A stretch of DNA of 64,000 nucleotides from the NCBI GenBank assembly GCA_050246755.1, contig JBFWVL010000001.1, forward strand, positions 64,001-128,000, given 5' to 3'. Origin of the DNA: Bacteriovoracia bacterium. GTDB taxonomy: Bacteria > Bdellovibrionota > UBA1018 > CAIPTA01. The position numbers and the translations under genes are program-made. Positions 6,738 through 63,804 of the stretch are shown here, in pieces (positions within the stretch are counted from its first letter, which is position 1; each line of letters starts with the position of its first letter). The notes below the pieces were generated by a model. It ran no database searches. It was not told the DNA's origin and worked only from the letters and a program-made list of their open reading frames with translations.

Positions 6738-7682
6738 GTGAAAAAATCAGACAAAGAACTATTGAGCAATCTCAAGGCAATCGTTGCGCGTGAACGGCTG
6801 ATAGTGATTGAACTACTGAGACACCTGCGAGAGGTGGAAGCCCGCTCGTTACATTTATCTTACGGCTATTCTTCGCTCTTCGCTTTTTGCGTAGGCGAGC
6901 TGAACTTCTCCGAGCAGGAAACTCACCTTCGAATACAAGGAATGCGGCTGGTTCGTGACGTTCCGGAAGCGGAGGAAAAGATCAATTCAGGTGAGCTCAG
7001 CCTAACCGTGGCGGCAAGAGTGCAAGGGGTTTCTCGTAAAGAAAACTTATCTCCCGACGAGAAATGGTCGGTGCTGGAGGCTGTCGCAGGCTTAAGCGTG
7101 CGTGAGGCCGAGAGAAAGATATTGGAATTTTTCCCCTCTCCGGAGAAACCGGAAAAGAAAAAGATGATTTCTGGCGGAAAAACCAGAATTGAATTCAATG
7201 CGGATACCGAACTGATGACTAAGCTGGAGCGCCTAAAAGAACTGCTTGCCCATAAAAACTATGATGGACGATTTGATTTACTCTTTGAGGAACTCGCGGA
7301 CATTGCCTTAGAAAAACTGGAGAAAAATGACGCTCCATTACTTAGTGCGCACAAAGTAAAACATTCCCGTTATATCCCCGCCGCCGTAAAACGCGCTCTT
7401 CCCTGGAAAGAAGGCTGCAACTATACCGGCGCGGGCAGACGCTGCGGATCCCGGTATGGCCTACAAGTAGATCATATCCACGACTACGCCGGCGGCGGAA
7501 CCAACGCCCCCGAAAACCTGCAACTCCTCTGCGGGGCGCATAATCGGTTTAAGTCTCGAAAAAATCCATCGCGAACGAATACAGCACCTCTTCCTTCGAG
7601 GGCTGTACTTTCTTCTGCAACTTCTCCACGAAATCCACGCAGAGCACCCGGAGATCCTGCGCATCAGCCTCCGAAAGACTAA
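6738..7682 (+). CDS. HNH endonuclease with DUF222-like N-terminal region
   Basis: GTG start after AAGGAGG; N-terminal ER....L.HL.EVE...GYSSLF.FC; C-terminal C..C-LQVDH..GG.N..ENLQLLCGAHN. Confidence 0.8.
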   Translation: MKKSDKELLSNLKAIVARERLIVIELLRHLREVEARSLHLSYGYSSLFAFCVGELNFSEQETHLRIQGMRLVRDVPEAEEKINSGELSLTVAARVQGVSRKENLSPDEKWSVLEAVAGLSVREAERKILEFFPSPEKPEKKKMISGGKTRIEFNADTELMTKLERLKELLAHKNYDGRFDLLFEELADIALEKLEKNDAPLLSAHKVKHSRYIPAAVKRALPWKEGCNYTGAGRRCGSRYGLQVDHIHDYAGGGTNAPENLQLLCGAHNRFKSRKNPSRTNTAPLPSRAVLSSATSPRNPRRAPGDPAHQPPKD

Positions 7683-8340
7683 CCACCACCGAGTAATGCA
7701 GGTCCGCCGCCGCATCCCGCTCCAGCGATTTCATCGCCTGTAGCCGTGCGTTCGTGTGGTGCTTCGCGATCAGTGAGGAATCGTTGCCGAGGTGCAGGTG
7801 CAGCGCCGTGGGATGGTATTCGTCCCCGCGCAGCTCGAGCAGCCCCGCGCCCACGAGAAAATCCAAGATCTCTCCTATCTTCCGCGCGGAAAGCCCGAGC
7901 CGCTTCGCCAATGCTCCCCGCGTGCGCAGAGAAGGAATCGTAACCGCCACGCGAACCGCGCCGTAGTACCAGGCACTGTAGTAACGGGATTTGTCCTCCG
8001 GAGACAATTCACGCTCGGAGCGAATACGATTCTTCAAAACCAAACGCGCCGCCCTCAGCGCCTCGAGCTGCTGCAAAAAATAACGCCGCAGATTTTCCGT
8101 GCCCGCACGCTCGTACTGGATGAGCAGCAGGAAGTAATGCAGCTCCTCTTCTCCGAGCTCCAAAAATCTCCCCAGCCTCTCGCCGTGTTCCAAATTGAAG
8201 TGGGCCTCGCCCTGCAGAACCTGGGAGATAAAGGCCCTCTGGCAGCCAATAGCCTCGGCCATTTGCGAGCGAAAGCCCCGCCCGGAGCGTTTTTCGAGAA
8301 ATTCCTTGTAGGATAGGAAGTCGAATATCTTTTGTTCCAT
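7549..8340 (-). CDS. TIGR02147/DUF4423-type HTH regulator-like protein (paralog 1)
   Basis: IFDFLSYKEFL, HTH (MAEAIGCQRAFISQVLQG), YYSAWYYGAVR, HHTNAR and C-terminal LYSFAMDFF. Confidence 0.85.
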   Translation of the reverse strand: MEQKIFDFLSYKEFLEKRSGRGFRSQMAEAIGCQRAFISQVLQGEAHFNLEHGERLGRFLELGEEELHYFLLLIQYERAGTENLRRYFLQQLEALRAARLVLKNRIRSERELSPEDKSRYYSAWYYGAVRVAVTIPSLRTRGALAKRLGLSARKIGEILDFLVGAGLLELRGDEYHPTALHLHLGNDSSLIAKHHTNARLQAMKSLERDAAADLHYSVVVSLSEADAQDLRVLCVDFVEKLQKKVQPSKEEVLYSFAMDFFET

Positions 8341-8474
8341 GATTCTAGTATCTTATATGTTTCATAAAATAGTAATTAATTGCTTCATATTTAAGAACTT
8401 CACCCTATAACCGATAAGTTGAGTACGGTATTCTTGTTTTACCGGAGCTTATTCCGGCTAAAACTGGAGAGAAT

Positions 8475-9835
8475 ATGAAAGCCCTGAACCTGAAAACCCT
8501 AGTACTCGTGAGCTTGCTCACTCTACCGAGCCTCAACGCCCTCGCCTGCCAAGGCGGAAGCTGCGGCGGCGGCGGTAGCGTGATCAAGGGCATGACCCTC
8601 GATACTTATCTGCAAAAGAATACGGCTGCCGAGCCGAGCTTGAAGCCAGCGTGGGCAAGGAACTAAGCGCGGTAGAGCAAAAACTCCCCGAATTTGCCCG
8701 CGAATTGAAGCGCGGCTTCAAAGAGCTCGATTGGTATATGGTGGACGTTCCCCTAAAAGAACTCCCCTTCGAACGCACGAAAACGCCCTTTGCGATCAAA
8801 CAGGCTTCGATTCAAATCGAAGACAATGTGTTTACCGACAAAGCGGCCTACGCGGAACTTTCGAAAGAAGAGCAACGCAAACACATCGTGCATGAACTGG
8901 TGCGCCGGATTTTCCTGGCCGCCGAGGGCACGAATACTTCCGTGACCGAAGGAAGCGTGGCGAAGGCAACGAATCTTCTGATGGAATCGGGAAATATTTC
9001 CAAAGCGGAACTCCAAGCGCGCCTCGAAAGCCTGGGATACCAAACCAAGAATATCGTCCACGCCGATAAACCGGAAGCGAAGAGAAAGTTAGCAAGCATG
9101 GCCGACCCTGTGGCCACCTCGGTTAAAATCGTAGCGCCGATCACTCTGCTCGATGCGCGCGAAGTGACTGTAGCTTGCACTAACGGCGGCCCCATGAACG
9201 GTCCCAGTGAGATTGTAGGTCCTTCCAACAAGTACTCGTTGATGCTGGACATGTTGCAAGGAATGAAACGCGAAGACTATCCCGATACTTATAAGTCGAG
9301 TTACGAAGGTTACGGCGAAGCGTACGAGTCTGCAGAAATTGAGCCAGAGCTGTCTCCTAAACGCTTAAGCTTGTCCTATGGAAAAACCTGGATTTGGGCC
9401 AGAAATGAAGTGGGCGTTTACAGCCTCATGGAGGGGACTTCCCGGGAAGCCGTGTTAGTCCTAGAAGGCGGGCTGCCCAAAGTGGTCACGCAAGGCGCAG
9501 AGAATGAACCCGCCTTCACTCCTTACGGGCTAACGAACCAGGAAAGGCATATTACGGAGGTCTCCATCGTTGCCAATAGCAACTGGCTGGTAGATGGACG
9601 TAACGTTTCTATGCGAAACGCAAAGAATGGAGTGACCACTCCGATCAAGATCGACGGCAAGAAATACATCAATTGCCTCAAAGAGGGTTTCGAAAAGAAA
9701 TCCCGCGAAGCCGCCAAGCTCTCCGACCAAGCGGCTAACCCCGCGATGGTAAGCGAACGAGTGAGCCAGAAAAAAGCCGCCGGCGGAAACGCCGAAGAGA
9801 AATCGGAAGTAAAAAACTCCCGAGACGCCGAGTAA
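8475..9835 (+). pseudogene. Secreted GGG/HE-motif protein split by a -1 frameshift (ORFs 8475-8666 and 8651-9835)
   Basis: ORF1 carries the RBS, signal peptide and GGSCGGGG. ORF2 continues with KELSAVE..IVHELV. One extra A near 8657 gives ..PAWAKELSAVE and a 453-aa protein. A sequencing error is possible. Confidence 0.7.
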
Positions 9836-9840
9836 ACCCC

Positions 9841-9869
9841 AGCCCCGCCTAACCGCGGGGCTTTTTTTT
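9841..9869 (+). terminator. Intrinsic terminator
   Basis: AGCCCCGC-ctaacc-GCGGGGCT followed by a T run, just after the stop at 9835. Confidence 0.8.
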
Positions 9870-10733
9870 CGTCAAACTCCGCAAATACGGAAAATACAAA
9901 ACCACGATCCCCGCCGCCACGAAGAAAAACCCAATGATCGCGCCGCGCGAAAGCGGCTCACCAAAGAAAATATATGCCGACAGCGCCGTGAACATCGGCT
10001 CGGCCAAGGTAGAAATACTCATGAGATTCACATTGAAGAACTGCAGGCAATAGGAAAACAGCGAATGCCCCAGCAACGTGGAGCCAAACGCCAGCCCCGT
10101 GAACCCGATCCAGGTATGCAGGGAATAGCCGAAAAAAGGCACACCGAGGACTACCATCGCCAGAGAAAAATAAACCGTCACGAAAGAGTACGTAGAAAAA
10201 GCAAATGGCAGATTATGAATCTTCTGCCGTAACCCCTTTCCCACCAAAATATAGGCCGAGAAAAGAATCGCGCAGATAAAGCCCCAAACATCCCCGATAA
10301 AATGCTCATGGCTCAGCGAAAGCGAATCCCGCATCATGAAATAAACGCCTACGAAGCACAGAAGTAAGGCGAGGCCATGCCGCTTCTCCATCTTCTCCCC
10401 GAAAAATACCCAGGCCCCGATCGCGGTGAAGAGAGGGTTCACGGCAAAAAGAATCATCGAGTTCGCTACGCTCGTCATCTGCACGGAGAGGAACCAGGTA
10501 TAGAAATGGGTAAAAAGAAAGAACCCGCAAATGGCCACTCCGCCCCACTGCCGGAGAGAAAATCTGCGGAAATCCCCCAAGCGCTTATGCCAGTAAAGAA
10601 ATCCTACTAAAACCGGCAGCGCAATAATCATGCGCCAAAACCCGATGGCGGGAGCCGGCGCCGCGGCTAAGCGAATAAAGATCGCGGACTGCGAAAGTAC
10701 AAAGAGAGAGGTGAGAAGAAGAGTAATCGGCAT
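9849..10733 (-). CDS. DMT/EamA family transporter
   Basis: About 10 hydrophobic helices in two repeats; SAIFIRLA, TSVANS, P.FTA...FFGE and GH..F..L..EP. Confidence 0.9.
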   Translation of the reverse strand: MPITLLLTSLFVLSQSAIFIRLAAAPAPAIGFWRMIIALPVLVGFLYWHKRLGDFRRFSLRQWGGVAICGFFLFTHFYTWFLSVQMTSVANSMILFAVNPLFTAIGAWVFFGEKMEKRHGLALLLCFVGVYFMMRDSLSLSHEHFIGDVWGFICAILFSAYILVGKGLRQKIHNLPFAFSTYSFVTVYFSLAMVVLGVPFFGYSLHTWIGFTGLAFGSTLLGHSLFSYCLQFFNVNLMSISTLAEPMFTALSAYIFFGEPLSRGAIIGFFFVAAGIVVLYFPYLRSLTKKKPRG

Positions 10734-10757
10734 AAATCACTTAGTGCGCACTAAGTG

Positions 10758-12191
10758 CTACCCGACCGTGCCCTCTAATTTCATATCCAGCAACCGGTTC
10801 GCCTCAATCGCGAACTCCATCGGCAGCTGCTTGAACACTTCCTCGCAGTAGCCGTTGATGATGAGTTTTACCGCATTCTCCTGCGTGAAACCGCGCGCCT
10901 GGAGGTAAAATAGCTGGTCCTCGGAAACCCTCGAGGCCGTGGCCTCATGCTCCACCACCGCGGAGGGATTTTTCACCGTGATATAGGGAAAAGTATTCGC
11001 CTCGCACTGGTCGCCGATGAGCAGGGAATCGCACTGGGTATGATTCCTCGCGCCCTCCGCGCCCGGCAGGATCGTAACGGCGCCGCGGTAGGTATTCATA
11101 CCGTGCCCAGCAGAGATGCCTTTGGAAAGAATGCGGGAGCGCGTGTTCTTGCCGATATGGATCATCTTGGTACCGGTATCGGCCTGCATATAATTATTCG
11201 TGATGGCCACGGAGAAGAACTCACCGGTGGAGCCATCGCCCTGGAGAATGCAGGAGGGATATTTCCAGGTGATCGCCGAGCCGGTTTCTACTTGGGTCCA
11301 GGAGATATAGGAATTCTCGCCCTTGCAGAGGCCGCGTTTGGTTACAAAATTATAGATTCCGCCCTTGCCTTCCGCGTCGCCGGCGTACCAGTTCTGCACG
11401 GTGGTATATTTAATTTTGGCGTCTTTCAGCGCGATTAGTTCCACGATCGCGGCGTGGAGCTGGTTCTCGTCGCGCTGGGGAGCCGTGCAGCCTTCCATAT
11501 AGGAAACTTCGGCGCCTTCGTCGGCGATGATGAGCGTGCGCTCGAACTGGCCGGTGCCGGAGGCGTTGATGCGGAAGTAAGTGGAGAGATCCATCGGGCA
11601 CTTTACGCCCTTGGGGATATACACGAAGGAACCGTCGGTGAAGACCGCGGAGTTCAGGGCCGCGAAGAAGTTGTCGGACACTGGGACCACGGTGCCGAGG
11701 TATTGGCGCACCAGTTCCGGACACTCGTGCATGGCTTCCGAGATGGAGCAGAAAATAATCCCGAGTTTCTTCAAAGCTTCGCGATGGGTGGTCACTACCG
11801 ATACGGAATCGAATACGGCATCCACGGCCACGCCGGCCAGGCGCTTTTGCTCGTGGAGAGGGATGCCGAGTTTTTCGTAAGCTTCGAGGAGCTGAGGGTC
11901 CACCTCGTCGAGGGATTTGAGATTCGGTTTCTTCTTGGGCGCCGAATAGTAAATGATCGACTGGTAATCCACGGGCGTATACTTCAGGTAAGCCCACTGG
12001 GGCTCGCTCATCTTTTGCCACTTGGCAAAAGCGGCGAGGCGCCAGTCCGTCATCCAGGAAGGCTCGTTCTTCTTCGCGGAGATGAAACGGATGATATCTT
12101 CGTTCACGCCGGCGGGCGCCTGGTCGGACTCAATATCGGTGGTGAAACCGTATTTGTATTCCTCGTTCAGTCTTTTATCTAATTCGCTCAT
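10758..12191 (-). CDS. sufB: Fe-S cluster assembly protein SufB
   Basis: [20 protein letters not shown]...[20 protein letters not shown] and [13 protein letters not shown]. Confidence 0.98.
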
Positions 12192-12511
12192 CACCAGATT
12201 CCTAATTTATCTTTTACTTCGTCCGAAGCCATCACGCGGGGATCCCACTTGGGATCGAACACGATCTGCACGTCGGCTTCCGTCACGCCCGGATATTCCT
12301 TTAGGCGATTCTTGATTTGATCCACGAGGTAGCCCGCCGAAGGGCAACCAGGAGAGGTAAGGGTCATTTTCACGTGGGCAGTAGAGCCCTCGACAGAAAC
12401 AGTATAGATGAGGCCCAAATCCACGAGGCTCAGGAATAATTCAGGATCCTGCACGGGACGCAGCCATTCGAGTAAAATAGTGGAATCGGCCGAGGGAAGG
12501 GTCTCGCTCAC
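12191..12511 (-). CDS. sufT: DUF59 metal-sulfur cluster assembly factor (SufT-like)
   Basis: [22 protein letters not shown] and FDPKW; GTG start overlaps the sufU stop. Confidence 0.88.
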
Positions 12512-12963
12512 TGAGCACCTCCGATTTGATTGATGGCGTCGTTCAGGGTGGTCCAGGGCAAGAGCGCGCATTTGATACGCACGGGGAAATTGCGGACACC
12601 CACGAGGCTCTCGAGGTCGCCTTCTACGGCGAGAGGGCACTCCTCCCCTTTCATCAGGGCGCGGAATCCCGCGATGGTTTTGGAAACCTCGGCCACGGGC
12701 TTGCCGATGAGCTCTTCGGTCATCATCGAGGCCGAAGCCATGCAAATGGAGCAACCTTCGCCGCGAAAACGACAATCAGCCATTACTTTTCCGTCATTAA
12801 TCAAAACGTCGATTTCCACGCGGTCTCCGCAGAGGGGATTATACCCTTCCGAATGCGAGGTGGGACCTTCCAGTTTGCCCTGGTTGCGGGGATGTCGGTG
12901 GTGATCGAGGATCACTTCACGGTAGAGGGCGTCGATGCCGCCGGCGCTTCGGTCCATACTCAT
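12508..12963 (-). CDS. sufU: SUF system NifU-family protein SufU
   Basis: LYREVILDH..HPRN, NPLCGD, GCSICMASASMM and RIKCALLPW. Confidence 0.95.
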   Translation of the reverse strand: MSMDRSAGGIDALYREVILDHHRHPRNQGKLEGPTSHSEGYNPLCGDRVEIDVLINDGKVMADCRFRGEGCSICMASASMMTEELIGKPVAEVSKTIAGFRALMKGEECPLAVEGDLESLVGVRNFPVRIKCALLPWTTLNDAINQIGGAQ

Positions 12964-14201
12964 CCGAAGTACTCCATAGCGGATTGCACCACTTCTGCGA
13001 GGCGATTCACTTCTTCCTTCGTATTGTAAAAATAGAAACTGGCGCGGTTGGTAGCGATCACGCCGAGCTTGCGCATGAGGGGCTGGGCGCAGTGGTGTCC
13101 GGCGCGGATCGCGATCCCTTCCGCGTCGAGGAAGGTGGCGAGATCGTGGGGATGCACAGTGCCGGTGGTGAAGCTCACGGCGCCGCCGTGGAGGCGAGCG
13201 TCGGCGGGGGCGAGCACCGAAATACCTTTGATCGCGAGCAGCTTTTCTTTGCAGTGGGCCACGAGGGAAGCTTCGTACTCGTGGATCCGGTCCATGCCGA
13301 TCGCGGCCAAATAATCGAGTGCGGTGCCGAAGGCGATGCTGTCGCCGTAGTTGGGCGTGCCGGCTTCGAACTTCCAGGGAAGCTCGTTCCAGGTAGTGGC
13401 CTCATCTCCCACGCGCAGAATCATATCGCCGCCGAACTGGTAAGGGGGCATCGCCTCGAGAATTTTTCGTTTCCCCCAGAGCACGCCGATCCCCGTGGGG
13501 CCGCACATTTTATGGGACGAGAAGGCCACGAAATCCACGTTGGGCCAATTCTTCAAATTGATATCCGAATGAGCCATCGCCTGGGCGGCGTCTACGAGCA
13601 CGGTGACGTCGTATTTTTTGGCGAGCGCGGAAATCTCGGTCACGGGATTGATGGTGCCGAGCACGTTACTCATGCCGGTGAAAGCGAGGAGTTTTACTTT
13701 TCCTTGGCTAAGGATTTTTTCCAGCTCCTCGAGGTGGAGGACGAAATCGCCCGCCACTTCCCAGATCACGAACTCGGCGCCCTTCTCTTTGCACAGGGAT
13801 TGCCAGGGCACGAAGTTCGAATGGTGCTCCATGCGCGTGACCACCACGCGATCGCCGGCCTGGATATTAGCGCGCCCCCAGGTGGCGGCCACGAGGTTGA
13901 TCGCCTCGGTGGTGCCGCGGGTAAAAATAATCTCGCCCTCGTCTTTGGTGCCGAGGTGGCGCGCGATCTTGCGGCGGGATTTCTCGTAGGCGTCGGTGGA
14001 TTCCTGGCTGAGGAAATGCACTCCACGGTGCACGTTCGCATTCAATTCTTTATAAACACGCGATTGCTCTTCGATCACGGCGAGCGGCTTCTGGGTGGTG
14101 GCCGCCGAATCCAGGTAAATGAGCGGCTTGCCCCGCACCTGGCGGGAGAGAATGGGGAAATCGGCGCGAAGTTTCAGCACTTCGGCGGGAGTCAGAGTCA
14201 T
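12960..14201 (-). CDS. sufS: Cysteine desulfurase SufS
   Basis: YLDSAATTQKP, SSHKMCGPTG (PLP Lys), FEAGTP and RAGHHCAQP. Confidence 0.97.
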   Translation of the reverse strand: MTLTPAEVLKLRADFPILSRQVRGKPLIYLDSAATTQKPLAVIEEQSRVYKELNANVHRGVHFLSQESTDAYEKSRRKIARHLGTKDEGEIIFTRGTTEAINLVAATWGRANIQAGDRVVVTRMEHHSNFVPWQSLCKEKGAEFVIWEVAGDFVLHLEELEKILSQGKVKLLAFTGMSNVLGTINPVTEISALAKKYDVTVLVDAAQAMAHSDINLKNWPNVDFVAFSSHKMCGPTGIGVLWGKRKILEAMPPYQFGGDMILRVGDEATTWNELPWKFEAGTPNYGDSIAFGTALDYLAAIGMDRIHEYEASLVAHCKEKLLAIKGISVLAPADARLHGGAVSFTTGTVHPHDLATFLDAEGIAIRAGHHCAQPLMRKLGVIATNRASFYFYNTKEEVNRLAEVVQSAMEYFG

Positions 14202-16688: not shown

Positions 16689-16721
16689 GAAATTCTTGTA
16701 CTCTTCGCTAAGGCCAAAATC

Positions 16722-16737
16722 AATACAAAGATGTATT
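16722..16737. promoter_or_regulatory. Palindromic operator candidate upstream of the Rrf2-suf operon
   Basis: AATACA-aaga-TGTATT inverted repeat in the divergent rrf2/pdxH gap. Confidence 0.45.
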
Positions 16738-16787
16738 AATTGCGCTTGCGGCCAAAGGTGTATAGTGGATATAAATGATCGTAATCT

Positions 16788-17399: not shown

Positions 17400-17439
17400 T
17401 TGCTAGAATTTCCCCGGAAAATTTGCGACTATTCGGCGC

Positions 17440-31607: not shown

Positions 31608-31633
31608 TCACTGTTCTCTATGGAGAACAGTGA
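31608..31633. promoter_or_regulatory. Perfect 11-bp inverted repeat upstream of TIGR02147-type gene (operator candidate)
   Basis: TCACTGTTCTC-tatg-GAGAACAGTGA, about 50 bp before ATG 31683. Confidence 0.5.
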
Positions 31634-31682
31634 TGTTCACCATTTTCTGTACAACCCGCCCTCCGCGCTATATTAAGAGCGC

Positions 31683-32504
31683 ATGATTTTCGAGCAAACA
31701 AACTATCGTGTCTTGCTGAAGGCGGCCTGGTCCGAAAAAGCAGCTAAGGGGAAAGGCTATTCCCTGCGTAGCCTAGCCAGGAAGGTGGGCGTGTCCCCTT
31801 CTTTTTTATCCGAAATGCTGAACGGCAAAAAATCTTTGTCGATGGATCTTGCCTTCAAGATCGCCGTGAAGCTGGGCCTCACCGAAACTGAAACCCAGAA
31901 TCTCTGCTTATTGGCCCAGCTCGAAAACGAGCAGGATCCTGATTTCCGCTCCGAGATCCTAAAGCGCATCAACCATCTGCACCCTCGGAAGAAGACTCAC
32001 GACCTTTCAACCGACCTCTTCAAGGTAATCGCCGATTGGTATCATTTTGCCATCCTGGAGATGACGCATTTGCCGGGTTTCCGCTTGCGTGCCGAAAGCA
32101 TCAGCAAGAGCCTAAACATCTCCAAGATAGAAGCCGAAGTGGCCATCGAACGGCTGCTGCGGTTGGAGCTCCTAGAAAAAACGGCCAAAGGATCCTACCG
32201 AAAAACTCACGACTATGTTCTGGCGCAATCCCAAATTTCCGCCGGAGCCCTCAGGCAATTCCACCGTCAGTACCTCGAAAAAGCGCAGCTGGCCCTCGAG
32301 GCGCAGTCTCCCCGGGAACGCGTGAGTGCCACCGACGTTCTGCCGCTAAATTCCAAGTATCTGCCCGAGGTGGATCGGCTATCGCGGGAATTTTCTTCCG
32401 CCGTGCTTCGGCTTTCAGAAAAAACCGGCACCAAAGATGCCGTCTACGCCCTCGGAGTGCATTGTTTTCGCTTAACCACCGCCTATTCTGGAGAAAAATC
32501 ATGA
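31683..32504 (+). CDS. TIGR02147/DUF4423-type HTH regulator-like protein (paralog 2)
   Basis: YSLRSLARKVGVSPSFLSEMLNGKK HTH, F..IADWYHFAILE, IERLLRLELL, ALRQFH and VYALGVHCFRLT. Confidence 0.9.
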   Translation: MIFEQTNYRVLLKAAWSEKAAKGKGYSLRSLARKVGVSPSFLSEMLNGKKSLSMDLAFKIAVKLGLTETETQNLCLLAQLENEQDPDFRSEILKRINHLHPRKKTHDLSTDLFKVIADWYHFAILEMTHLPGFRLRAESISKSLNISKIEAEVAIERLLRLELLEKTAKGSYRKTHDYVLAQSQISAGALRQFHRQYLEKAQLALEAQSPRERVSATDVLPLNSKYLPEVDRLSREFSSAVLRLSEKTGTKDAVYALGVHCFRLTTAYSGEKS

Positions 32505-33550
32505 AAGCATTAATCCTTGCCGTTACCCTCGTCTTCACTTTCACCGGCCCCTGCTTCGCCTCCGGCTCCAGCGTGCGCGGCGGCGGCGACGAAGTGGCTC
32601 TGGAATTCCATAAAAGCTTGTCCCGTGCCATTTCGGAACTCAAGGAACGAGACCAGGAAATATACCGTCGCATCTCGGCGGATCGCTTGCTTGATCTTTC
32701 CCGGGAGGCCAAAATCGTGGTGGTCGATAATGCTCTGGAAGTGAAGATTAAAGACCTGATCCAGAATTCCGTGGCGGTGAATGTGCCGGCGAAAAATTTG
32801 ATTTTGATCAATCGATCTCGCTGGCAAGCTATCGCAGACGATCGGGTAAAAGAAGCTATTTCCCTGCACGAAATCCTCAGCCTGCAAAAGTTGGAGCAAA
32901 CCGGACTCTACGAGATTTCCGCGAAATACCTCGCCCTACAAGGATTGCCGCAAGAACTCTTGTCCTCCAGCCTAGCCGTCAATCGCCTCCAGCAAATCCT
33001 GGCGCTAGAGCCTGCAGACTCTCCGTATGCGGTGCTCGAGAAGCTTTTCCAGGAGGCTCGCGAGCCCTTGACGCTCCGTGATCTGGCAGTCTTGCACTCC
33101 GACCCGGCCTTTCGCTGCCAATCCACCTACTCTTTTAAAATGCGGAGCGACTCGGATCAATGGTCCGATCCCAGCGAACTCCGCGCCGTTTTGGCTGGGC
33201 AATTAGTGGTAGAAACCAAAGCCCCCGTCCCGGGACGCGTAAGCCGTGGGCCGCTCTTTCCCGGCAGCGATCCCTCTCCCGCCGCCGAGGATACCCGGAT
33301 TTTCGTCGGAACGACGGGCAATTTTGGAATGAATTCTAATCCCACTTGGAAAAACTGGCAGGACTCTTCGCTAAAGAGCGACGGCAGGAAGATCCGGCAG
33401 TCCCTGGTGGATCCCGACCAAAGAAAAAAACGCACGGACGAGGTGCGGAAAAATAATGGCCTGCTCGTGATCAAGACGATCGAAGACACGAATAACCGCA
33501 ACTGGTTCAGTATGCCCTTTATCGCCTATACCTATTGCTATAGAGAATAG
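32501..33550 (+). CDS. Secreted GGG/HE-motif hypothetical protein
   Basis: ATG after GGAG overlaps the upstream stop (ATGA); signal peptide ..CFA, SGSSVRGGGD, INRSRW..ISLHEIL. Confidence 0.8.
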   Translation: MKALILAVTLVFTFTGPCFASGSSVRGGGDEVALEFHKSLSRAISELKERDQEIYRRISADRLLDLSREAKIVVVDNALEVKIKDLIQNSVAVNVPAKNLILINRSRWQAIADDRVKEAISLHEILSLQKLEQTGLYEISAKYLALQGLPQELLSSSLAVNRLQQILALEPADSPYAVLEKLFQEAREPLTLRDLAVLHSDPAFRCQSTYSFKMRSDSDQWSDPSELRAVLAGQLVVETKAPVPGRVSRGPLFPGSDPSPAAEDTRIFVGTTGNFGMNSNPTWKNWQDSSLKSDGRKIRQSLVDPDQRKKRTDEVRKNNGLLVIKTIEDTNNRNWFSMPFIAYTYCYRE

Positions 33551-52182: not shown

Positions 52183-52185
52183 TCG

Positions 52186-55257: not shown

Positions 55258-55312
55258 TTGGGGCCGAGATTACAGGCTTCGACGCCGAACGTCAACCGCG
55301 AGCGAGCATCGT

Positions 55313-57023: not shown

Positions 57024-57087
57024 ATTCGTAACCCCCTAGGCTCTCGCCCATTCCATACTATCCATCTGATTTTTTACCATCGCGCTG

Positions 57088-57116
57088 ATCGGGCATCAAC
57101 TAATCGGGTCAACTAG
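57088..57116 (-). promoter_or_regulatory. Possible Rrf2/IscR-type operator
   Basis: Minus strand CTAGTTGACCCGATTAGTTGATGCCCGAT: imperfect direct repeat resembling the TAGTTGACC IscR half-site. Confidence 0.35.
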
Positions 57117-57189
57117 TCACGCATCGATGCAACGCATCATATGAATGTTTTCTCCTATTGGAATAATAAAGTCAACAACCAAAAATGTT

Positions 57190-57633
57190 TTAGTCGACAA
57201 TTTTTAGTGAGGCAGAAAAAGTTATCGATCGACCAGTCGCGTCAGTCTCGAGATGCACGTCAATCGAGCGTCTCGAGATAGGCAAGTTCGGCAGTCGGAT
57301 TTGATCCGGCCACTCAATAAAATAGATTTTCTCCTCTTCGAAGAACTCGGCGCCGCCAAACTCTTCCAATCCCGAGTTACTCGATAACCTATAGAAATCA
57401 CAGTGGATTATGGGGGCAACCAAGCTTTCATACTCGTGAACAAGGGAAAAGGTAGGACTATGAACTTCTGCGGCATCTCCCCCCAGCCCACCCACAAGTC
57501 CGCGAACCAAAGTAGTTTTTCCCGCCCCCAGCGACCCTGTAATTTTTACAATATCACCTGGCTTCAAGATCCTGGAAAACTTCTCCCCAAAACGTTCGGT
57601 GGCTTCCGAATCGGGTAAAAAAACTTTCTTCAC
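57190..57633 (-). CDS. tsaE: t6A biosynthesis ATPase TsaE
   Basis: GSLGAGKTT..RG, V.SPTFSLV.EY, H.D.YRL and IEWP. Confidence 0.96.
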   Translation of the reverse strand: MKKVFLPDSEATERFGEKFSRILKPGDIVKITGSLGAGKTTLVRGLVGGLGGDAAEVHSPTFSLVHEYESLVAPIIHCDFYRLSSNSGLEEFGGAEFFEEEKIYFIEWPDQIRLPNLPISRRSIDVHLETDATGRSITFSASLKIVD

Positions 57634-59189
57634 GATAAAAGTTCGCGCTGCTTTCGGAGGTCGAGGAAAGAATCTCCGAGGTGAGAAATGATATCGGAGG
57701 CCGTCATGGAGCGGTGACCAAGACGCTGAGAAGCAAAATCCCCCGCCATGCTGTGGAGAAACACGCCAAGGCAGACCGCATCTTTAGGATCCATCTTCTG
57801 CTGGCCCACAATCCCGCCAATCATTCCGGCCAGCACGTCGCCCGAGCCCGCGGTGGCCATCCCATCGTTAGGATAATGGTTCAGGTAGATATGCCCGTCG
57901 CCCGCGCAGATAAAGGTGGTGGCGCCCTTCAGCAGCACGATCGAATTAGTTTCCTCGGCGGCGCGTTCCACCATTTCCTTGGGATGATCCACTACCTCGG
58001 CCTTGGGCACGCTCAGCAGGCGCGAGAGCTCGCCGGGGTGCGGGGTGAGGATCGTAGGGCCTTTGCGGCGGTGTAATTTTTCCCGCAGCTCGGGTTTGGC
58101 GAGGAGGGTAATGCCGTCGGCGTCGATCACGAGCGGACCGCGGAAATAGTCGATAAAATCGCCCAAAACTTTTTGGGCGCGCTCATCGGTGCCCATGCCG
58201 GGCCCTACCACCACCGAGGAATAATGATTCACGGCCTCGCGGCTTTTTAGGTAGCTCTCCTCTTCCATCCAGAGGGGATGCACCATCAATTCATCTTCCA
58301 CGCGCGTGAGCAATTGCTCGTAGGAATCGTCCCAGGTGAGCACGCTCACCAGGCCGGATCCCACCCGCAAGCAGGCCCGGGCCGCCATCGAGATCGCGCC
58401 GAGCGTTCCCTTGGATCCGCCGAACAATAAAGTGTGGCCGAAAGAATTTTTATGACCATAGCGATCGCGGCGGCGCAAGAGCGGAGCCACATTGGATTTC
58501 GCGAGCGCGTGGATGCCGCCTTCGTTGCGGAAGGAAACCGGCAAGGCGATGTCCACGATGCGCAGCTCCCCGCGGTGCACGGCGCCCGGCGCGATATAGT
58601 GGCCGATTTTGGCGAAGCCGAACGCGATGGTGAGGTCAGCGTAGATGGCCTGGCCGATCACGGCGCCGGTGGTGGCGTCCACGCCGGTAGGAATATCGAG
58701 GGAGATCACGAAATCGGTTTTGGCGTTGATGATATCCACCACGTCGGCAAAAAGGCCGGCGAGCGGCCCCTTGAATCCGATGCCGAGCAAACCGTCCACG
58801 CAGAGGAAAGGCCCCGTGGCGCTCTCGAAAAATTCCTCGAGGGGGCCCACGTTATCGAGCACGACCGGGCGGATTTTTTGCTCGAGCAGAATTTCCAGAT
58901 TCTGCTTCGACTCGTCTTTGTAGGCATCGAAGCTATGAAGGAGAAATAGCTTTACGCGTTTGCCCATGGCCACGAGCTGACGCGCCACCACGAGGGCATC
59001 TCCGCCGTTCTTCCCTTTGCCGGCGAAGACCAAGATATCGGAGCCGTAATTGAGCTCTGCTTGTTTGGCGGCCACGATCTCGGCGGCGCGGAGACCTGCG
59101 TTTTCCATCAGCACGATGGAAGGAATTTTAAATTTACGAATGGCGAGCTCGTCGATGTCTCGCATTTCCCGGGATGTCACTACGCGCAT
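57630..59189 (-). CDS. nnr: Bifunctional NAD(P)H-hydrate epimerase/dehydratase
   Basis: LMENAG, GKNGGD, DIPTG, HKNSFG, GPGMG, DADG, TPHPGE and ATAGSGDVLAG. Confidence 0.95.
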   Translation of the reverse strand: MRVVTSREMRDIDELAIRKFKIPSIVLMENAGLRAAEIVAAKQAELNYGSDILVFAGKGKNGGDALVVARQLVAMGKRVKLFLLHSFDAYKDESKQNLEILLEQKIRPVVLDNVGPLEEFFESATGPFLCVDGLLGIGFKGPLAGLFADVVDIINAKTDFVISLDIPTGVDATTGAVIGQAIYADLTIAFGFAKIGHYIAPGAVHRGELRIVDIALPVSFRNEGGIHALAKSNVAPLLRRRDRYGHKNSFGHTLLFGGSKGTLGAISMAARACLRVGSGLVSVLTWDDSYEQLLTRVEDELMVHPLWMEEESYLKSREAVNHYSSVVVGPGMGTDERAQKVLGDFIDYFRGPLVIDADGITLLAKPELREKLHRRKGPTILTPHPGELSRLLSVPKAEVVDHPKEMVERAAEETNSIVLLKGATTFICAGDGHIYLNHYPNDGMATAGSGDVLAGMIGGIVGQQKMDPKDAVCLGVFLHSMAGDFASQRLGHRSMTASDIISHLGDSFLDLRKQRELLS

Positions 59190-59300
59190 GGAAGCCTCCG
59201 GAAAGGAGCTTAGCATAAGGAAGCGGAGGCGAATAATGGGTTTCCGATGCTGCAGAGTGCCGCCCTAGGCGCACAGGGATTTCCTTGCTAGATTCTCCCC

Positions 59301-59801
59301 ATGAAATACTTATTTGCCCTTTTCCTTCTCTCGGCTTGCGCCACTGCCGCTCCCAAATCTTCGGTTCACTCCGCCACGGAAAAAAAAGAAGAGGATGCGC
59401 CCGCTCTCTCTCACCGCGGCGGCTCTCCGCTCAAGGAGTTCACCTTCAGTAAGGAAAACGCGGAGAAGCTCTATGGTGCGCTGAAAGAAATTGGCGTGCG
59501 CCCCATTCGCGATGGCTCCGTTACCTACCTCACCGCCCACGATCTTTCCTGCACGCTCGTGCCCACCCAAAACGACGCCGCCACGGAATGCGAATATTGG
59601 GACGGTGCCCCTGGCGCGAAAAGCCGCAAGCAGCATTTGGTAAAAAACAAAAAAGGCCTCGAAAACCTGCGCCTCTTCCTCAGCGAGTACCCCGTGGAGC
59701 AAGGCGATACCGGCGCCGTGGTGCGCTTCGCCCAATGCCGGGTATACCGAGAGAGCCTGGACTGCTTTCTAGCGATTCATATGAACTATGAGGGGCCGTA
59801 A
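59301..59801 (+). CDS. Hypothetical lipoprotein
   Basis: MKYLFALFLLSAC lipobox; four further Cys. Confidence 0.75.
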   Translation: MKYLFALFLLSACATAAPKSSVHSATEKKEEDAPALSHRGGSPLKEFTFSKENAEKLYGALKEIGVRPIRDGSVTYLTAHDLSCTLVPTQNDAATECEYWDGAPGAKSRKQHLVKNKKGLENLRLFLSEYPVEQGDTGAVVRFAQCRVYRESLDCFLAIHMNYEGP

Positions 59802-59875
59802 GAATTCCCCTCAAATCCCATCACGGCCTCCAGGGCGTTCGGCATATCATTCCTCAGTAAACGGCAGAAAAAACA

Positions 59876-59904
59876 AAAGCCAGAACCTCTCGGTTCCGGC
59901 TTTC
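59876..59904. terminator. Probable bidirectional terminator
   Basis: AAAGCCAGAACC-tctc-GGTTCCGGCTTT between convergent genes. Confidence 0.6.
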
Positions 59905-59941
59905 CTATTTGGCCGGTGTTTTAACGAAATAGCCGAAGAGC

Positions 59942-60250
59942 CTATTTTTTCTTTACGCTTTTTACCACGCAGGTATCTTCCGTGCCTTTTGCGGTAACGG
60001 TAAAAAACTCCGCCGGATACTCTTGGGAACTGGCTCCGTCACTATATTGGGCAAATACTTCTACTTCGTAGCGAAGAGTATTTCCGCGAGCGCTAACCAA
60101 AACGGCATTGACCATTTCCAAGCTGCTGGTATCGACCGTTACGAACTCAAACGCCGCTTTGCTCACCGTTTCTTCACAAGTAGCCGCAGCTGCAGTTTGC
60201 GCTGCAAAGCCAGAAGCAATAAATAAGGTTAGTACGATTAAATTTTTCAT
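59942..60250 (-). CDS. Small hypothetical secreted protein
   Basis: GGAGA RBS; signal peptide; N- and C-terminal Cys pair. Confidence 0.72.
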   Translation of the reverse strand: MKNLIVLTLFIASGFAAQTAAAATCEETVSKAAFEFVTVDTSSLEMVNAVLVSARGNTLRYEVEVFAQYSDGASSQEYPAEFFTVTAKGTEDTCVVKSVKKK

Positions 60251-60366
60251 ATTTGTCTCCAAAAAAATTATAGAAATCGCTTATATTGCATTGCGCCAAA
60301 ATAACAAAGAATATTTTTATTAGGATTCGATGAAGGTTTAGCGCCTAGCTCACAATCGTCAGGGCC

Positions 60367-61611
60367 TTAGCGCAAGATTCCGGCGAGGGTTTTCTTAAAA
60401 CTCGCCGTCCAGTAATTCCCGCAGTGGCCACCGGCCTCGAACACGTGCAGGCGGGAGCCGAGCGTCTCTTCCAGGCTCGCCAGATCGCGGGGGCGCAAAA
60501 GAAAATCATCCACGCTGGTGATCACGTGGATCTTGGAATTGCGCGTATTCTTCAAGGCGCGATTCAGGCCGGCCCCCTGAATAAGCGCGGAGAAATTCGT
60601 GGAGGTTCTGCCGCGCCCGTCTAACGCAGCTCCCGCGTAGACTATATATTTTTCAAACGTGACGGAACGGAGAGAAGCTTCCACTCTCCCCCGCCGCTCT
60701 CCGCTGAAAAAATCCGGATAAGCCGCAAATAGCCCTCTGGTAATTGCCTTCAGCGACTGCTGAAAACTTTCGCCAATTACCTTTTGCCCCTTTTCCTCTT
60801 CAGCGGGCAAAAACATGCGGATCGCCTCCACGCCTTCGCGCGAAATCCCTTCCTGCGCCTGCAGGTAAGCCCAGATCAATTCGAAGTGAAGGTCCGGTAC
60901 CGAATCGGCGTTCCGCAGAGAAAGCCGGATCATGTCGTCGAGCCGGTCCATCGCGTAGTTCAAGCTCACGGGAGGATTCAAGGCGATCAACTTATCGAAG
61001 GGCAATGCGGGAGATTGGCCATTTTCGAGAATCGCATACAGCCCGCCGAGCGAAGAGCCCATCAAGAAGAGTTTTCGTGGCTGACCGCGGTTGTGCCGAT
61101 ACAATTCCACGGCGGCTTCGAACATGCGATGGGCATCCACCGCATCTTTTTGCGGCAAGCCGACCAAACCGTCGGCGGAAAAGGATTTTTGGAATTCGGG
61201 GCTGAAAGGATTGGCCAGAACCAGAGAATCGTAACCGAGGCTGGCCACCAATTCGGCGAGCACGTTCGAAATTCCCGACGAAGCCCCGCCGCCCGTGCCC
61301 GGCAAAATCAGGAATAGGCCCTTCGTGTTTGGCTGCGCAGATTTCCAAAAACGGATCGGCAGCTCTTTCCGGGAATTTGGCACAGGCAGCAAGAGATCGA
61401 CGCCGAGGTCCTTACTGGGCTGGCCGATTCCCGCGAGCACGGTGGACTGGAACCAGCTCCAGCCCTTCATCTCGGAGGGCAGAAGGGTATAGGCACGCGC
61501 CGAGGGAGAGAGGACGCAAAGCAGGAGGACGATCCGTCCCCAGCCCTTCAGCCACTTACCCTTCCTATTTCGCATGGGGCTCGAAGTATCGAATGGGGAG
61601 GAGAAGGTCAA
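60367..61611 (-). CDS. Secreted alpha/beta hydrolase (start probably nearer 61575)
   Basis: LPGTGG oxyanion loop, GSSLGG nucleophile elbow, DDFL Asp and GGHCG His. Confidence 0.85.
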   Translation of the reverse strand: MTFSSPFDTSSPMRNRKGKWLKGWGRIVLLLCVLSPSARAYTLLPSEMKGWSWFQSTVLAGIGQPSKDLGVDLLLPVPNSRKELPIRFWKSAQPNTKGLFLILPGTGGGASSGISNVLAELVASLGYDSLVLANPFSPEFQKSFSADGLVGLPQKDAVDAHRMFEAAVELYRHNRGQPRKLFLMGSSLGGLYAILENGQSPALPFDKLIALNPPVSLNYAMDRLDDMIRLSLRNADSVPDLHFELIWAYLQAQEGISREGVEAIRMFLPAEEEKGQKVIGESFQQSLKAITRGLFAAYPDFFSGERRGRVEASLRSVTFEKYIVYAGAALDGRGRTSTNFSALIQGAGLNRALKNTRNSKIHVITSVDDFLLRPRDLASLEETLGSRLHVFEAGGHCGNYWTASFKKTLAGILR

Positions 61612-61651
61612 GGGAAAATTGACTCAACGCATTATCCTGAAGGAAGCCTAA

Positions 61652-61685
61652 TAAAAAAGGGCCAGCGCGGAAGCGCCAGCCCTTT
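61652..61685 (-). terminator. Intrinsic terminator
   Basis: Minus strand AGGGCTGGCGC-ttcc-GCGCTGGCCCT followed by a T run, after the stop at 61702. Confidence 0.65.
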
Positions 61686-61701
61686 GCAGTCTCCGCAAAA
61701 A

Positions 61702-62871
61702 CTATTCTGCGGTGGTAGAAGAACCCTCTTCCTTTGCGGAAGAATCGGATTCGATTTGCTTGTGCCTGGCACGCGCCTTCACGAAGTCCATGGATTCATC
61801 GTCTTTGCCGATTTTAATGCAGCGGCCATAGACCACTTCCTTATTCAGCTTTTTCTCTTCGCCGGCCGGAGTTACTTCCACCTGCATCCACTTTTCGTCG
61901 TCGGAGATAGTGTCCTTGTTGAAAGGACCATACTCGGCAGGAGCCGTTTTGAACTTCCAGCTGCGGCCATCGAACTTCTGGGTGATCTCTCCGCGAACCG
62001 GAATCGTTCCGTCTTTGTATTCGTTCAGGGTCAGGCCCGGCACGAACATCGTGGTCCGGCTAGCCAGCTCTTCGCCGCCGATGCGGTTGAAGTTAAACAG
62101 CAAACCTTTTACGCCGTTTTGCGAGGATTCCGAAACATACCAGCCCGTGCTCTTACGCTGCTGGGTGCTGTATCCGGCGGCAGGAACCGCCACCTGGTAC
62201 TTCGACCAGCACTGCTGGTAAACCGGCGCTTCCCAAATATCTTTCAGGAGAGGCTCGCTGCCCTCGAAGAACAGGCTCACCACGTTTTTGCGGGTATCGT
62301 CGGAGGTAATCGCGTCTCCGCCGGAGCGGCGAAGGGCGTAAACCAATTCGTGGACGATCAGGGCGGCCCGATCCCTGGGGCTGAGCATTTTAAAATATTT
62401 TTTATTTATCTTAATCTTGAGTTTCTTGAAGTACATGGAGCTGAATACGCTCTGGTCTCCGGTCTGCTGGGCGATCTGCACCGCTTTGCAACCCGGCTTC
62501 AAGTCCGGCAAGGTAGCGTCGGAGCTGTACGCCAGATTTTCGTCCACGTACTGCACCTTCTCTTTCAGGAGCGTGCGCAAGGAGTCCATCATGGGCTTGC
62601 CGCCGGCGGGCGTCGGGGCGGCGGCTCTAGATTTCTGCGCGAAAATATCGAGGTAGAATTTTAGGTTTCTCTGAAGCGTGCCTTGGTCCGGCAAGGGCTT
62701 CAAGTTATGCACGTGCTCGCCTTCGTAGAGGTCGAGGGTTTGCAGTTTCCCGTTACAGAGGATGCCTATGCCTCCGCCGGTGCCTACTCCACCTTCAGCG
62801 AAGCAGGAAGTGCTTGCTCCCAATAGGGAGGCAGCCAAGAGCGCTAATTTCATTTTAGGTACGTGCTTCAT
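61702..62871 (-). CDS. Secreted GGG/HE-motif hypothetical protein
   Basis: GGAGA RBS; signal peptide ..SCFA, EGGVGTGGG, INKKYF..LS...RAALIVHELVY. Confidence 0.82.
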   Translation of the reverse strand: MKHVPKMKLALLAASLLGASTSCFAEGGVGTGGGIGILCNGKLQTLDLYEGEHVHNLKPLPDQGTLQRNLKFYLDIFAQKSRAAAPTPAGGKPMMDSLRTLLKEKVQYVDENLAYSSDATLPDLKPGCKAVQIAQQTGDQSVFSSMYFKKLKIKINKKYFKMLSPRDRAALIVHELVYALRRSGGDAITSDDTRKNVVSLFFEGSEPLLKDIWEAPVYQQCWSKYQVAVPAAGYSTQQRKSTGWYVSESSQNGVKGLLFNFNRIGGEELASRTTMFVPGLTLNEYKDGTIPVRGEITQKFDGRSWKFKTAPAEYGPFNKDTISDDEKWMQVEVTPAGEEKKLNKEVVYGRCIKIGKDDESMDFVKARARHKQIESDSSAKEEGSSTTAE

Positions 62872-62991
62872 TTGCAGGTCTCCATTAAATTGTACTTCTA
62901 GATCTAATTTAACGCATGGCAGCAACATCCTCCTTAGCAATTTAGTCTAAAGATCGCGAAAAAAGTGACCGATAGTCATATAATGGAGCAT

Positions 62992-63804
62992 ATGGTGAAT
63001 ATCTATGCCTTTTCTGACTACCGCGCTTTCCTGAAAGCCTGGCTCCAGGAGGCTAAAACCACGAAGACTTCGAACCTCTCGCGGCTCGCGGAGGTGGCTA
63101 AGGTGCACGCCACCTTTCTCTCCCACGTGCTCACCGGCGACAAACACCTCAGCCTCGAACAGGCCGCCTTCCTCAGCGAGTACTTTGGACATACCAGGCT
63201 CGAGCGCGACTACTTCTTCGTGCTCATCCACCTCGACCGCGCGGGCACCCCTATCCTCCGCGAATACTGGGAGGAGAAAAAGCTGCAGCTCGAGAAAGAA
63301 AAAAACAAGCTCAGCGCCCGCTTCGATCCTCACCACGAGCTCACGCCGGAACAAAGGGCCACCTTCTATTCTTCCTGGCTCTACGTGGCCATCTGGGTGA
63401 GCACCGATATCGCCGGCGGCCAAACCCTCCCCCAGATCGCCGCGCGCTTTCGCCTGAAACCCACGAAGGCCGAGGAGATCATGACCTTCCTCGTGCAAAC
63501 GGGGATTTGCGTGGAAGAAAAAGGGAAGTTCCACATGGGAAAAACGCACGTGCATGTGCCCAACGAATCCCCGCTCGTGGTGAAGCACCATTCGAACTGG
63601 CGGATGAAGGCGATGCAGAGAATGGACTTTCGCGAGGAGGCCGAATTATTTTTCACCGCGCCGATGTCGATCTCGAAAAAAGATTTCGCCGCGATCCGGG
63701 AAAAGCTCAACGTGGTGATCAAAGAAGCCGTGGAAGTGGCGAAGGCCTCACGCTCCGAAGATCTCTTCTGCCTGAATATCGATTTCTTCCAATCGGAAGC
63801 GTAG
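62992..63804 (+). CDS. TIGR02147/DUF4423-type HTH regulator-like protein (paralog 3)
   Basis: IYAFSDYRAFL, LAEVAKVHATFLSHVLTG HTH, FYSSWLYVAI, HHSNWR and LFCLNIDFF. Confidence 0.88.
   Translation: MVNIYAFSDYRAFLKAWLQEAKTTKTSNLSRLAEVAKVHATFLSHVLTGDKHLSLEQAAFLSEYFGHTRLERDYFFVLIHLDRAGTPILREYWEEKKLQLEKEKNKLSARFDPHHELTPEQRATFYSSWLYVAIWVSTDIAGGQTLPQIAARFRLKPTKAEEIMTFLVQTGICVEEKGKFHMGKTHVHVPNESPLVVKHHSNWRMKAMQRMDFREEAELFFTAPMSISKKDFAAIREKLNVVIKEAVEVAKASRSEDLFCLNIDFFQSEA

Follow-up and report, generated by a model that had tools for sequence, protein, structure and literature searches.

Which role can a regulator of the TIGR02147/DUF4423 type have when its gene stands, time after time, directly beside a gene for an exported protein? 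The question is raised by a window of 64,000 nucleotides (G000:C1:64001-128000) of the 3.55-Mb, 10-contig assembly of a Bacteriovoracia bacterium. Each complete DUF4423 gene of this window adjoins the coding sequence of a partner protein with a signal peptide, a Gly motif right after it, and a block around a His-Glu pair (the HE block). To our knowledge, TIGR02147 ('Fsuc_second')/PF14394 DUF4423 is a large family of regulators with no assigned function. A preliminary description of the window, made from its letters alone, had proposed that these pairs are dispersed two-gene cassettes, each with its own regulator and a secreted protein whose C-terminal half would be exchangeable. Here we report that the pairing extends over the whole genome and recurs across the phylum Bdellovibrionota, and we propose, at a rough probability of 0.55, that each cassette consists of a private local regulator controlling one exported, zincin-derived protein.

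The genes that make up the cassettes in and at the edge of the window are the following.

7549..8340, minus strand: regulator 1, TIGR02147/DUF4423, 263 aa; PF14394 69 bits, E 5.4e-19; TIGR02147 62.8 bits, E 3.4e-17.
8475..8666, plus strand: partner 1, 5' piece with signal peptide and GGSCGGGG, ending at a frameshift-caused stop.
8579..9835, plus strand: partner 1, remaining frame, with HE block IVHELV and a unique C-terminal half; the longest open reading frame (ORF) with a start codon is 8651-9835.
31683..32504, plus strand: regulator 2, TIGR02147/DUF4423, 273 aa; PF14394 112.5 bits, E 2.3e-32; TIGR02147 136.4 bits, E 1.2e-39.
32501..33550, plus strand: partner 2, 349 aa; signal peptide, GSSVRGGGD, HEILS.
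61702..62871, minus strand: partner 3 (P0005), 389 aa; signal peptide, EGGVGTGGG, C39, D47, D118, C128, H174-E175-x-x-Y178, S190, R194.
62965..63804, plus strand: regulator 3, TIGR02147/DUF4423, 279 aa, GTG start; PF14394 71.8 bits, E 7.4e-20; TIGR02147 69.6 bits, E 2.8e-19.
63825..64000, minus strand: regulator 4, 3' end, cut by the window end; full gene at G000:C1:127825-128634(-).
G000:C1:128783-129850, plus strand: partner of regulator 4, just beyond the window.

The three complete regulators are what the preliminary description took them for, since all of them exceed the curated cut-offs of both models (30 bits for PF14394, 50 bits for TIGR02147); a Pfam search also finds an N-terminal helix-turn-helix (HTH) match of the HTH_3/HTH_31 type in each. 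The layout that it read from the sequence, divergent, translationally coupled and again divergent, holds as well: the genes of the first and third pairs are separated by 134 bp and 93 bp, and in the second, the tetranucleotide ATGA at 32501-32504 combines the start codon of the partner with the stop codon of the regulator, and GGAG stands 8 nt upstream. As to the partner motifs, the signal peptide, the Gly motif (GSSVRGGGD in partner 2, GGVGTGGG in partner 3) and the HE block (TDKAAYAELSKEEQRKHIVHELV in the 8579-9835 frame of partner 1, INRSRWQAIADDRVKEAISLHEIL in partner 2, INKKYFKMLSPRDRAALIVHELV in partner 3) are all present in the translations, but partner 1 splits them between two frames.

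Beyond the window, the genome has 22 places with a DUF4423 (PF14394) match, 21 of them over the cut-off, and 20 of the 22 genes adjoin an ORF with signal peptide, Gly motif and HE block. Fourteen of these 20 cassettes are divergent, with gaps of 93-155 bp; the other six have both genes on the same strand, five with the regulator first and an overlap of 4-8 nt, and one with a 111-bp gap. Conversely, all detectable partner genes in the genome adjoin a regulator. A hidden Markov model (HMM) built from the 20 N-terminal modules (N-modules) recovers, out of 12,678 ORFs, those 20 plus one 147-aa fragment and nothing else. This fragment (G000:C6:140764-141207, L005), found immediately behind a partner gene, aligns with the beginning of the N-module (E 2.7e-5); it could be a vestige or an additional short copy.

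The same answer is reached from an unbiased start. Searching with P0005 alone, phmmer finds 7 other ORFs at E<0.01, each adjoining a DUF4423 match, and iteration from this single sequence converges on 9 members, all of them within 512 bp of a DUF4423 domain match. When each partner is left out of the model in turn, 19 of the 20 are recovered at E<=0.0062, all of them ahead of any unrelated ORF, the missed one being C3:284631-285737; partner 1 is recovered at E 1.3e-5, and partner 2, the weakest of the window's three, at E 0.0029. A core-family profile without the window partners aligns by hhalign with partner 2 at the HE block (probability 58%, E 9.9e-5), and with partner 1 alone the core-family profile gives a weak alignment in the correct register (probability 2%, E 0.025).

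Chance does not account for such proximity. Nineteen of the 20 partner ORFs lie within 600 bp of a DUF4423 domain match, the twentieth being the truncated ORF of partner 1 at 629 bp, whereas random placement of 20 genes puts on average 0.34 of them within that distance and never more than 4 in 10,000 trials. The preliminary description had named, as the result that would speak against it, a lack of enrichment of HE-block genes beside TIGR02147 genes beyond chance; with 19 found against 0.34 expected, and with the pairing holding genome-wide and in the phylum sample described below, this comparison came out in favour of the pairing.

In 20 relatives, two profiles of the partner family (A1 and A2) mark 22 distinct partner places, of which 19 stand directly beside a DUF4423 match and 2 more within 2 kb of one, one of the latter being a tandem second copy. 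Because the partner profiles miss many partners, we also inspected the neighbourhoods of 21 DUF4423 genes with a profile-missed partner in three genomes, plus one partner match without a listed regulator. At these loci, the adjoining ORF, usually downstream of the regulator and overlapping its end, opens with a signal peptide and (E)GG...GGG. In one genome (G011), both elements are clear in the ORF adjoining 11 of 14 regulators, borderline at 2 and absent at 1; in another (G018), such an ORF adjoins all 5 regulators examined. Judging from these translations, the Gly motif directly follows the signal peptide also in partners that are otherwise beyond recognition.

The phylum was sampled as an even set of 80 genomes plus the window's own, 81 in all. 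PF14394 has matches in 66 of these 81, one genome reaching 38, and the A2 profile (E<=1e-5) in 36. The 70 genomes of the sample that had not already been examined hold 75 distinct partner places, 65 of which adjoin a DUF4423 gene and 70 of which have one within 2 kb. For 32 of the 75 the neighbour is a DUF4423 match among the matches listed (150 of 477), and 2 more represent a second copy that follows another partner; the remaining 41 places (39 loci), scored with a purpose-built regulator HMM, comprise 33 with an adjacent regulator (gap of at most 173 bp, or overlapping), 3 with one at 1.0-1.7 kb, including a tandem second copy, and 2 at contig ends. Two adjacent pairs of the sample are convergent, tail to tail (L057 in G063:C4 and L074 in G077:C8). 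The recurrence of the module is statistically overwhelming and extends to genomes sampled across the phylum, and the dispersed cassettes with their own TIGR02147/DUF4423 regulator, as first proposed for the window, are confirmed by both counts (20 of 22 regulators in the genome, 65 of 75 partners in the sample).

What is the partner? As far as profile matches tell, its N-module of ~190 residues defines a large family for which neither Pfam nor NCBIfam has a model. With a profile of the 20 paralogs, 7092 of 1.84 billion cluster representatives are matched at E<=1e-3, 3956 of them also at E<=1e-10. The matched proteins are 198-838 residues long, and only about the first 190 profile positions take part in the match; the nearest Atlas clusters come mostly from Bdellovibrionota. 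A word-based homology search with P0005 yields 2 proteins only, because this kind of search is too insensitive for the family. No Pfam family falls on the N-module in 84 representatives, and no credible NCBIfam match was obtained in 31. Known domains are scarce throughout: one Ig-like domain and one set of MORN repeats among the 84, both beyond the N-module, and, among the 20 partners of the genome, one LRR_8 and one weak metallopeptidase match inside the N-module. P0005 itself has a weak, sub-threshold match to PF18894 (phage metallopeptidase) at the HE block.

In 120 core members, G33, C39, D47, D118, C128, H174 and E175 (P0005 numbering) are invariant, and G27, G34, E50, S190 and R194 nearly so. 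Among the 20 divergent paralogs of the genome, H174 and E175 are the sole invariant residues besides the start Met. Position 178 is Tyr in 114 of the core members, Leu in 4, His in 1 and Phe in 1, and the window partners have HELVR (partner 1), HEILS (partner 2) and HELVY (partner 3) where zinc proteases have HExxH. The full HExxH motif is kept in a minority, as HEFSH in the genome's own C2:62663 copy, as HEMLH and HETMH in G017, and in 3 of the 41 ORFs of the phylum sample; divergent members that keep it include L030 and L032 (both G017), L053, L069 and L071 (G063), of which L030 is a 151-aa fragment adjoining a transposase-like ORF. All intact partners open with a signal peptide, and some relatives have lipoprotein signals.

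The AlphaFold model of P0005 is confident in the blocks of the N-module, approximately residues 30-215 (predicted local distance difference test, pLDDT, 85-97), and poor in the C-terminal half (pLDDT below 50). In this confidently modelled domain, the first strand begins with G33 and G34, and C39 and C128 probably form a disulfide pair. In an exhaustive VIA search, 18 of the top 20 rows for this domain are zincins or zincin-like proteins, aligned over residues 64-207 including the HE helix; they comprise selecase, M35 aspzincins, M1 aminopeptidases, ACE2, the VgrG2b effector domain, abylysin, lethal factor, BlaR1, Pra1 and SPRTN, and PprI/IrrE is also among these weak matches. The conserved S190 and R194 lie where the third zinc ligand would be expected. 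This signal, consistent but weak, suggests that the partner family may derive from a small zincin whose second zinc ligand has mostly been lost. A candidate relationship from another search, the best match of the core-family profile to PDB sequences (E 0.058), was judged spurious.

The best structural matches of the N-module are small zincins (the minigluzincins selecase, 4qhf, and abylysin, 4jiu, and the M35 aspzincins 1g12, 1eb6 and 2x3a, at Z 4.0-4.6). Contrary to them, the N-module has HExxY in place of HExxH, the conserved S190/R194, an extra N-terminal Gly-rich strand and the probable C39-C128 disulfide.

The model of regulator 2 is confident (pLDDT 88.7) and has two domains of DNA-binding type. 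Residues 5-100 resemble proteins of the XRE family, namely HigA (Z 8.4), DdrO (Z 8.2), ImmR (Z 7.8), and SinR and the controller proteins of restriction-modification systems (Z 7.5). Residues 107-205, the DUF4423 core, resemble the winged helices of ArsR, SmtB, MarR and HxlR proteins (Z 8.0-8.6), with Phr (Z 8.6), PA1607 (Z 8.4) and CadC (Z 8.2) as the best matches. According to the model, the regulator joins an XRE-type HTH to an ArsR/MarR-like winged helix, an architecture on which no paper was found for TIGR02147/DUF4423.

Taken together, these features lead us to the following proposal. The cassette would be a private transcription unit made of a cytoplasmic, two-domain DNA-binding protein and the one gene under its control. 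In the divergent form, both genes would share the AT-rich control region of 93-155 bp between them; in the operon form, the regulator comes first with its stop overlapping the partner start, and the unit would probably regulate itself. The partner, exported by the Sec pathway, would present after its signal peptide the motif (E)GGxxxGGG, followed by the N-domain of ~190 residues resembling a zincin, with the invariant His-Glu pair on the helix that bears HExxH in zinc proteases (here usually HExxY), and by a C-terminal half specific to the lineage. Its place of action would be extracytoplasmic, and it would be either a binding protein or a hydrolase whose site is unusual. The families, their pairing, its arrangement and its spread are established by the present data, whereas we infer the binding of the regulator to the adjacent control region, as well as the export and the activity of the partner. 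The differing time courses of six DUF4423 proteins of Bdellovibrio bacteriovorus over predation (PMC12546842) are in keeping with the proposal.

In its genetic layout, this arrangement is similar to that of other local regulators encoded beside their targets, such as divergent MarR-, LysR- and XRE-type proteins and autoregulated operons, with which it shares the short control region or the overlapping genes, the DNA-binding folds and candidate palindromes. Unusual, by comparison, is that a single genome of 3.5 Mb contains ~20 such private pairs and that their targets all belong to one family; binding is in this case a prediction.

Several observations weigh against this proposal. The link between regulator and partner is drawn from adjacency alone, and adjacency has its exceptions. 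Two regulators of the genome stand without a partner of the HE family (C1:219340-220395 and C6:206010-206963), one of the 22 partner places in the relatives is without a nearby regulator (that copy is also without the GGG motif), and the same is true for 3 of the 75 in the phylum sample (L059, L068 and L045, the last with only ~520 bp of upstream contig). Downstream of the regulator at C1:219340-220395, and overlapping it, is a gene (G000:C1:219068-219391) whose product would be a small lipoprotein of ~90 aa, rich in Cys and Gly; by the predicted nature of this product, the regulator is still paired with an exported protein, of a different kind; the one at C6:206010-206963 adjoins a serine-recombinase-like ORF.

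Neither do the two proteins measurably co-vary. The comparison of regulator and partner trees suggested in the preliminary description shows no tracking between them: over 19 pairs, with the frameshifted partner dropped, the identities of regulators and partners are uncorrelated (Mantel rho 0.045, a value reached by 1679 of 5000 permutations), in a test of low power because the sequences are near saturation (12-36% identity). Nearest neighbours agree in 4 of the 19 pairs.

The zincin part of the proposal has its own difficulties. In 114 of the 120 core members the second zinc-binding His is replaced by Tyr, and protease activity is doubtful because this ligand is missing in most of them. Foldseek with the P0005 model returns nothing at E<=1e-3 against the PDB or a viral library, and the best VIA match of the N-module (selecase 4qhf, 90 residues aligned, rmsd 3.4) has a Z of 4.6, in the range under 8 that, by the tool's own notes, can reflect a common arrangement.

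The DNA between the genes offers candidate sites of regulation, which are listed here together with the other elements found around the window cassettes.

8341..8474: control region of module 1, divergent, 134 bp, AT-rich, with GTAATTAA at 8372-8379.
8391..8416, plus strand: sigma-28/FliA-like promoter TTAAG-N15-CCGATA in front of partner 1.
31608..31633: perfect inverted repeat TCACTGTTCTC-TATG-GAGAACAGTGA with 11-nt arms, 50-75 nt upstream of regulator 2; candidate operator.
61656..61685, minus strand: strong terminator-like hairpin with a 13-bp stem and a T-run, directly after partner 3.
62872..62964: control region of module 3, divergent, 93 bp.

The 14 divergent control regions average 35% G+C. 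The octamer TTAATTAA, allowing at most one mismatch, occurs in 10 of them and, for comparison, in 142 of 831 windows of low G+C content taken from the genome, counts which AT-rich DNA inflates; exact copies number 19 in the genome, 4 of them within the 1815 bp of the divergent regions. Arms of 11 nt, such as those of the repeat at 31608-31633, are reached by none of 300 shuffles. Perfect repeats equalled by no more than 7 of 300 shuffles are present in 4 of the 20 control regions, and this one is the best of them; 10 of the 20 have no inverted repeat beyond shuffles, which counts against the proposal. Regulator 2 has another, short palindrome, GCGCT-N8-AGCGC, immediately upstream of its start codon (31665-31682). 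As for promoters, the pattern TTAA[GT]-N15-16-CCGA[TC]A, adapted from the Bdellovibrio bacteriovorus consensus given in PMC3627812, has 20 sites in the genome on both strands, 4 of which are in front of partner genes; these are 4 of the 14 divergent partners, namely partner 1 and those of 3 other cassettes, and partners 2 and 3 are without it. In the promoter set of PMC3627812, the attack-phase consensus TTAAG-N16-CCGATA is present in 92 of 140 attack-phase promoters of B. bacteriovorus. The four candidate promoters of our genome look like the FliA (sigma-28) attack-phase promoters of that study, with TTAAG-N15/16-CCGA(T/C)A, while the other 10 divergent partners are without the pattern. Octamer, repeats and promoter pattern are to be regarded as leads towards operators and promoters, not as evidence of function. 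Among RNA families, none of Rfam reaches its gathering score anywhere in the window.

Which other readings could explain the cassettes? The one that survives best, unlikely as we hold it to be, takes the partners for polymorphic effectors, in which a constant N-module would serve delivery or processing and an exchangeable C-terminal cargo would act against prey or competitors, each regulator switching its own effector at a set point of the predatory cycle. It is invited by the combination, as in polymorphic toxins, of a conserved N-module with C-terminal parts unrelated to each other, in proteins of 198-838 aa, by the concentration of the family in Bdellovibrionota, and by the attack-phase-type promoters before 4 of the 14 partners. 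It would also fit the timing of DUF4423 proteins during predation: according to PMC12546842, six of them are detected in the B. bacteriovorus proteome with differing time courses (supplementary file 3), and they peak at different times, Bd3700 being up 2.67 log2 at 4 h and Bd3758 peaking at 1-2 h. In the same study, the neighbour of Bd3700, Bd3701, which may or may not belong to the partner family, is nearly flat (+0.49 log2 at 3 h).

The C-terminal halves themselves speak less clearly. That the partners cannot be aligned after the HE block, as noted for the window, extends to the whole genome, where none of the 20 C-terminal parts (91-281 aa) matches another at E<0.01. None of them matches any other ORF of the genome at E<0.001 either, so the "exchangeable cargo" of the preliminary description is not seen: no C-terminal part recurs in another protein, and rapid divergence would explain the data as well as exchange would. 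Contrary to polymorphic toxins, the partners have a Sec signal and almost no known domain in their C-terminal halves, with no toxin domain recognised by Pfam in the genome's 20 partners or the 84 representatives; no immunity-like small gene stands beside the three window cassettes or among their flanking genes, and no sharing of C-terminal parts was seen. Furthermore, the N-module, where the invariant residues are found, has the appearance of the functional part. The suggestion that the partners are prey- or competitor-directed effectors thus finds no backing in toxin domains or immunity genes, and the reading as exchangeable cargo or prey effectors is neither supported nor excluded.

Less probable still is that the two genes simply travel and duplicate together, with the DUF4423 protein acting elsewhere or not on transcription at all. 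Adjacency without regulation would fit the missing measurable co-variation between regulators and partners, and also the fact that half of the control regions are without a significant operator in common. However, the adjacency is kept phylum-wide at below 30% identity, in two arrangements that both couple expression, and the regulator model has two DNA-binding folds. The cassettes are also placed among unrelated genes, many of them housekeeping, and not in mobile islands: an HNH endonuclease, an EamA transporter, SufB/D, a FadL-like porin, adenylosuccinate lyase and an NAD(P)HX repair enzyme are found around those of the window.

In some systems a regulator is governed by the export of its partner, as when the export of FlgM frees sigma-28. 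A feedback of this type, to which we give little credence here, would make the Gly stretch at the mature N-terminus a tag, the regulator sensing the unexported precursor or its processing, so that each partner would report its own secretion. The fixed position of (E)GGxxxGGG right after the signal peptide, kept even in unrecognisable partners, would agree with such a tag, but with G33 and G34 at the beginning of a strand of the modelled domain, the Gly motif may simply belong to the fold, and contact between the two proteins would be hypothetical.

ImmR/ImmA and DdrO/IrrE consist of an XRE repressor and an adjacent zincin protease, and a switch of that kind, with the partner cleaving its neighbouring repressor, is the least credible reading of all: the gene pairing has the same form, the regulator HTH resembles those of DdrO and ImmR, and the weak zincin matches of the partner include PprI/IrrE and BlaR1, but the Sec and, in some relatives, lipoprotein signals would separate the partners from a cytoplasmic repressor, HExxH is absent in most, and the three window partners have no Peptidase_M78/COG2856 match (Pfam, E<=0.1). 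The likeness of the cassettes to ImmR/ImmA, DdrO/IrrE and also BlaI/BlaR1, namely an XRE-like HTH beside a zincin-like protein, ends at this point, since here the partners carry an export signal, are mostly without HExxH and match neither M78 nor M56.

The proposal of a private local regulator for each exported, zincin-derived protein can be taken further, into what we regard as speculation that will probably not hold in full. The phylum would have a bank of ~5-40 private switches per genome, each setting the time at which one exported, zincin-derived and fast-evolving protein is released during predation, and the HExxY site, with Ser and Arg in place of zinc ligands, would be a new, possibly metal-independent, catalytic or recognition site.

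Partner 1 deserves a separate comment. The preliminary description presented it as one gene at 8475-9835; it is not a single ORF. The frame starting at 8475 stops at 8664-8666, the remainder of the protein lies in a different frame (a -1 shift), and the signal peptide and Gly motif are thereby out of frame with the HE domain. By comparison with paralogs, the shift is placed at ~8615-8640. An independently assembled contig of the probable source run (X1) is identical at this site, with no indel and at a depth of 18.7, so the frameshift is a real feature of that data set; the site is covered by the probable source run alone, as the other three runs do not span it. Partner 1 in its frameshifted form is probably a pseudogene.

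Two further observations concern the placement of the window cassettes. At 62965-64000, two of them stand back to back, with regulators 3 and 4 convergent and 20 bp apart and their partners facing outward. Next to regulator 1, an ORF with an HNH endonuclease domain (6738-7682) is convergent with it and overlaps its 3' end by 134 bp.

A full-text literature search found no published description of the regulator-partner pairing, in line with the statement of the preliminary description that none was known. Because the pairing is nearly obligatory, a first testable role can be proposed for both families, namely that each regulator controls the exported protein that it adjoins. This would apply to a regulator family, TIGR02147/DUF4423, expanded to 22 copies in a 3.5-Mb genome, and to a partner family with thousands of members. 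If the HExxY site is active, it would represent a new variant of the zincin active site; and if the partners act on prey, or on the envelope of the predator itself, predatory bacteria would possess in them an extensive and so far unexplored repertoire of exported proteins.

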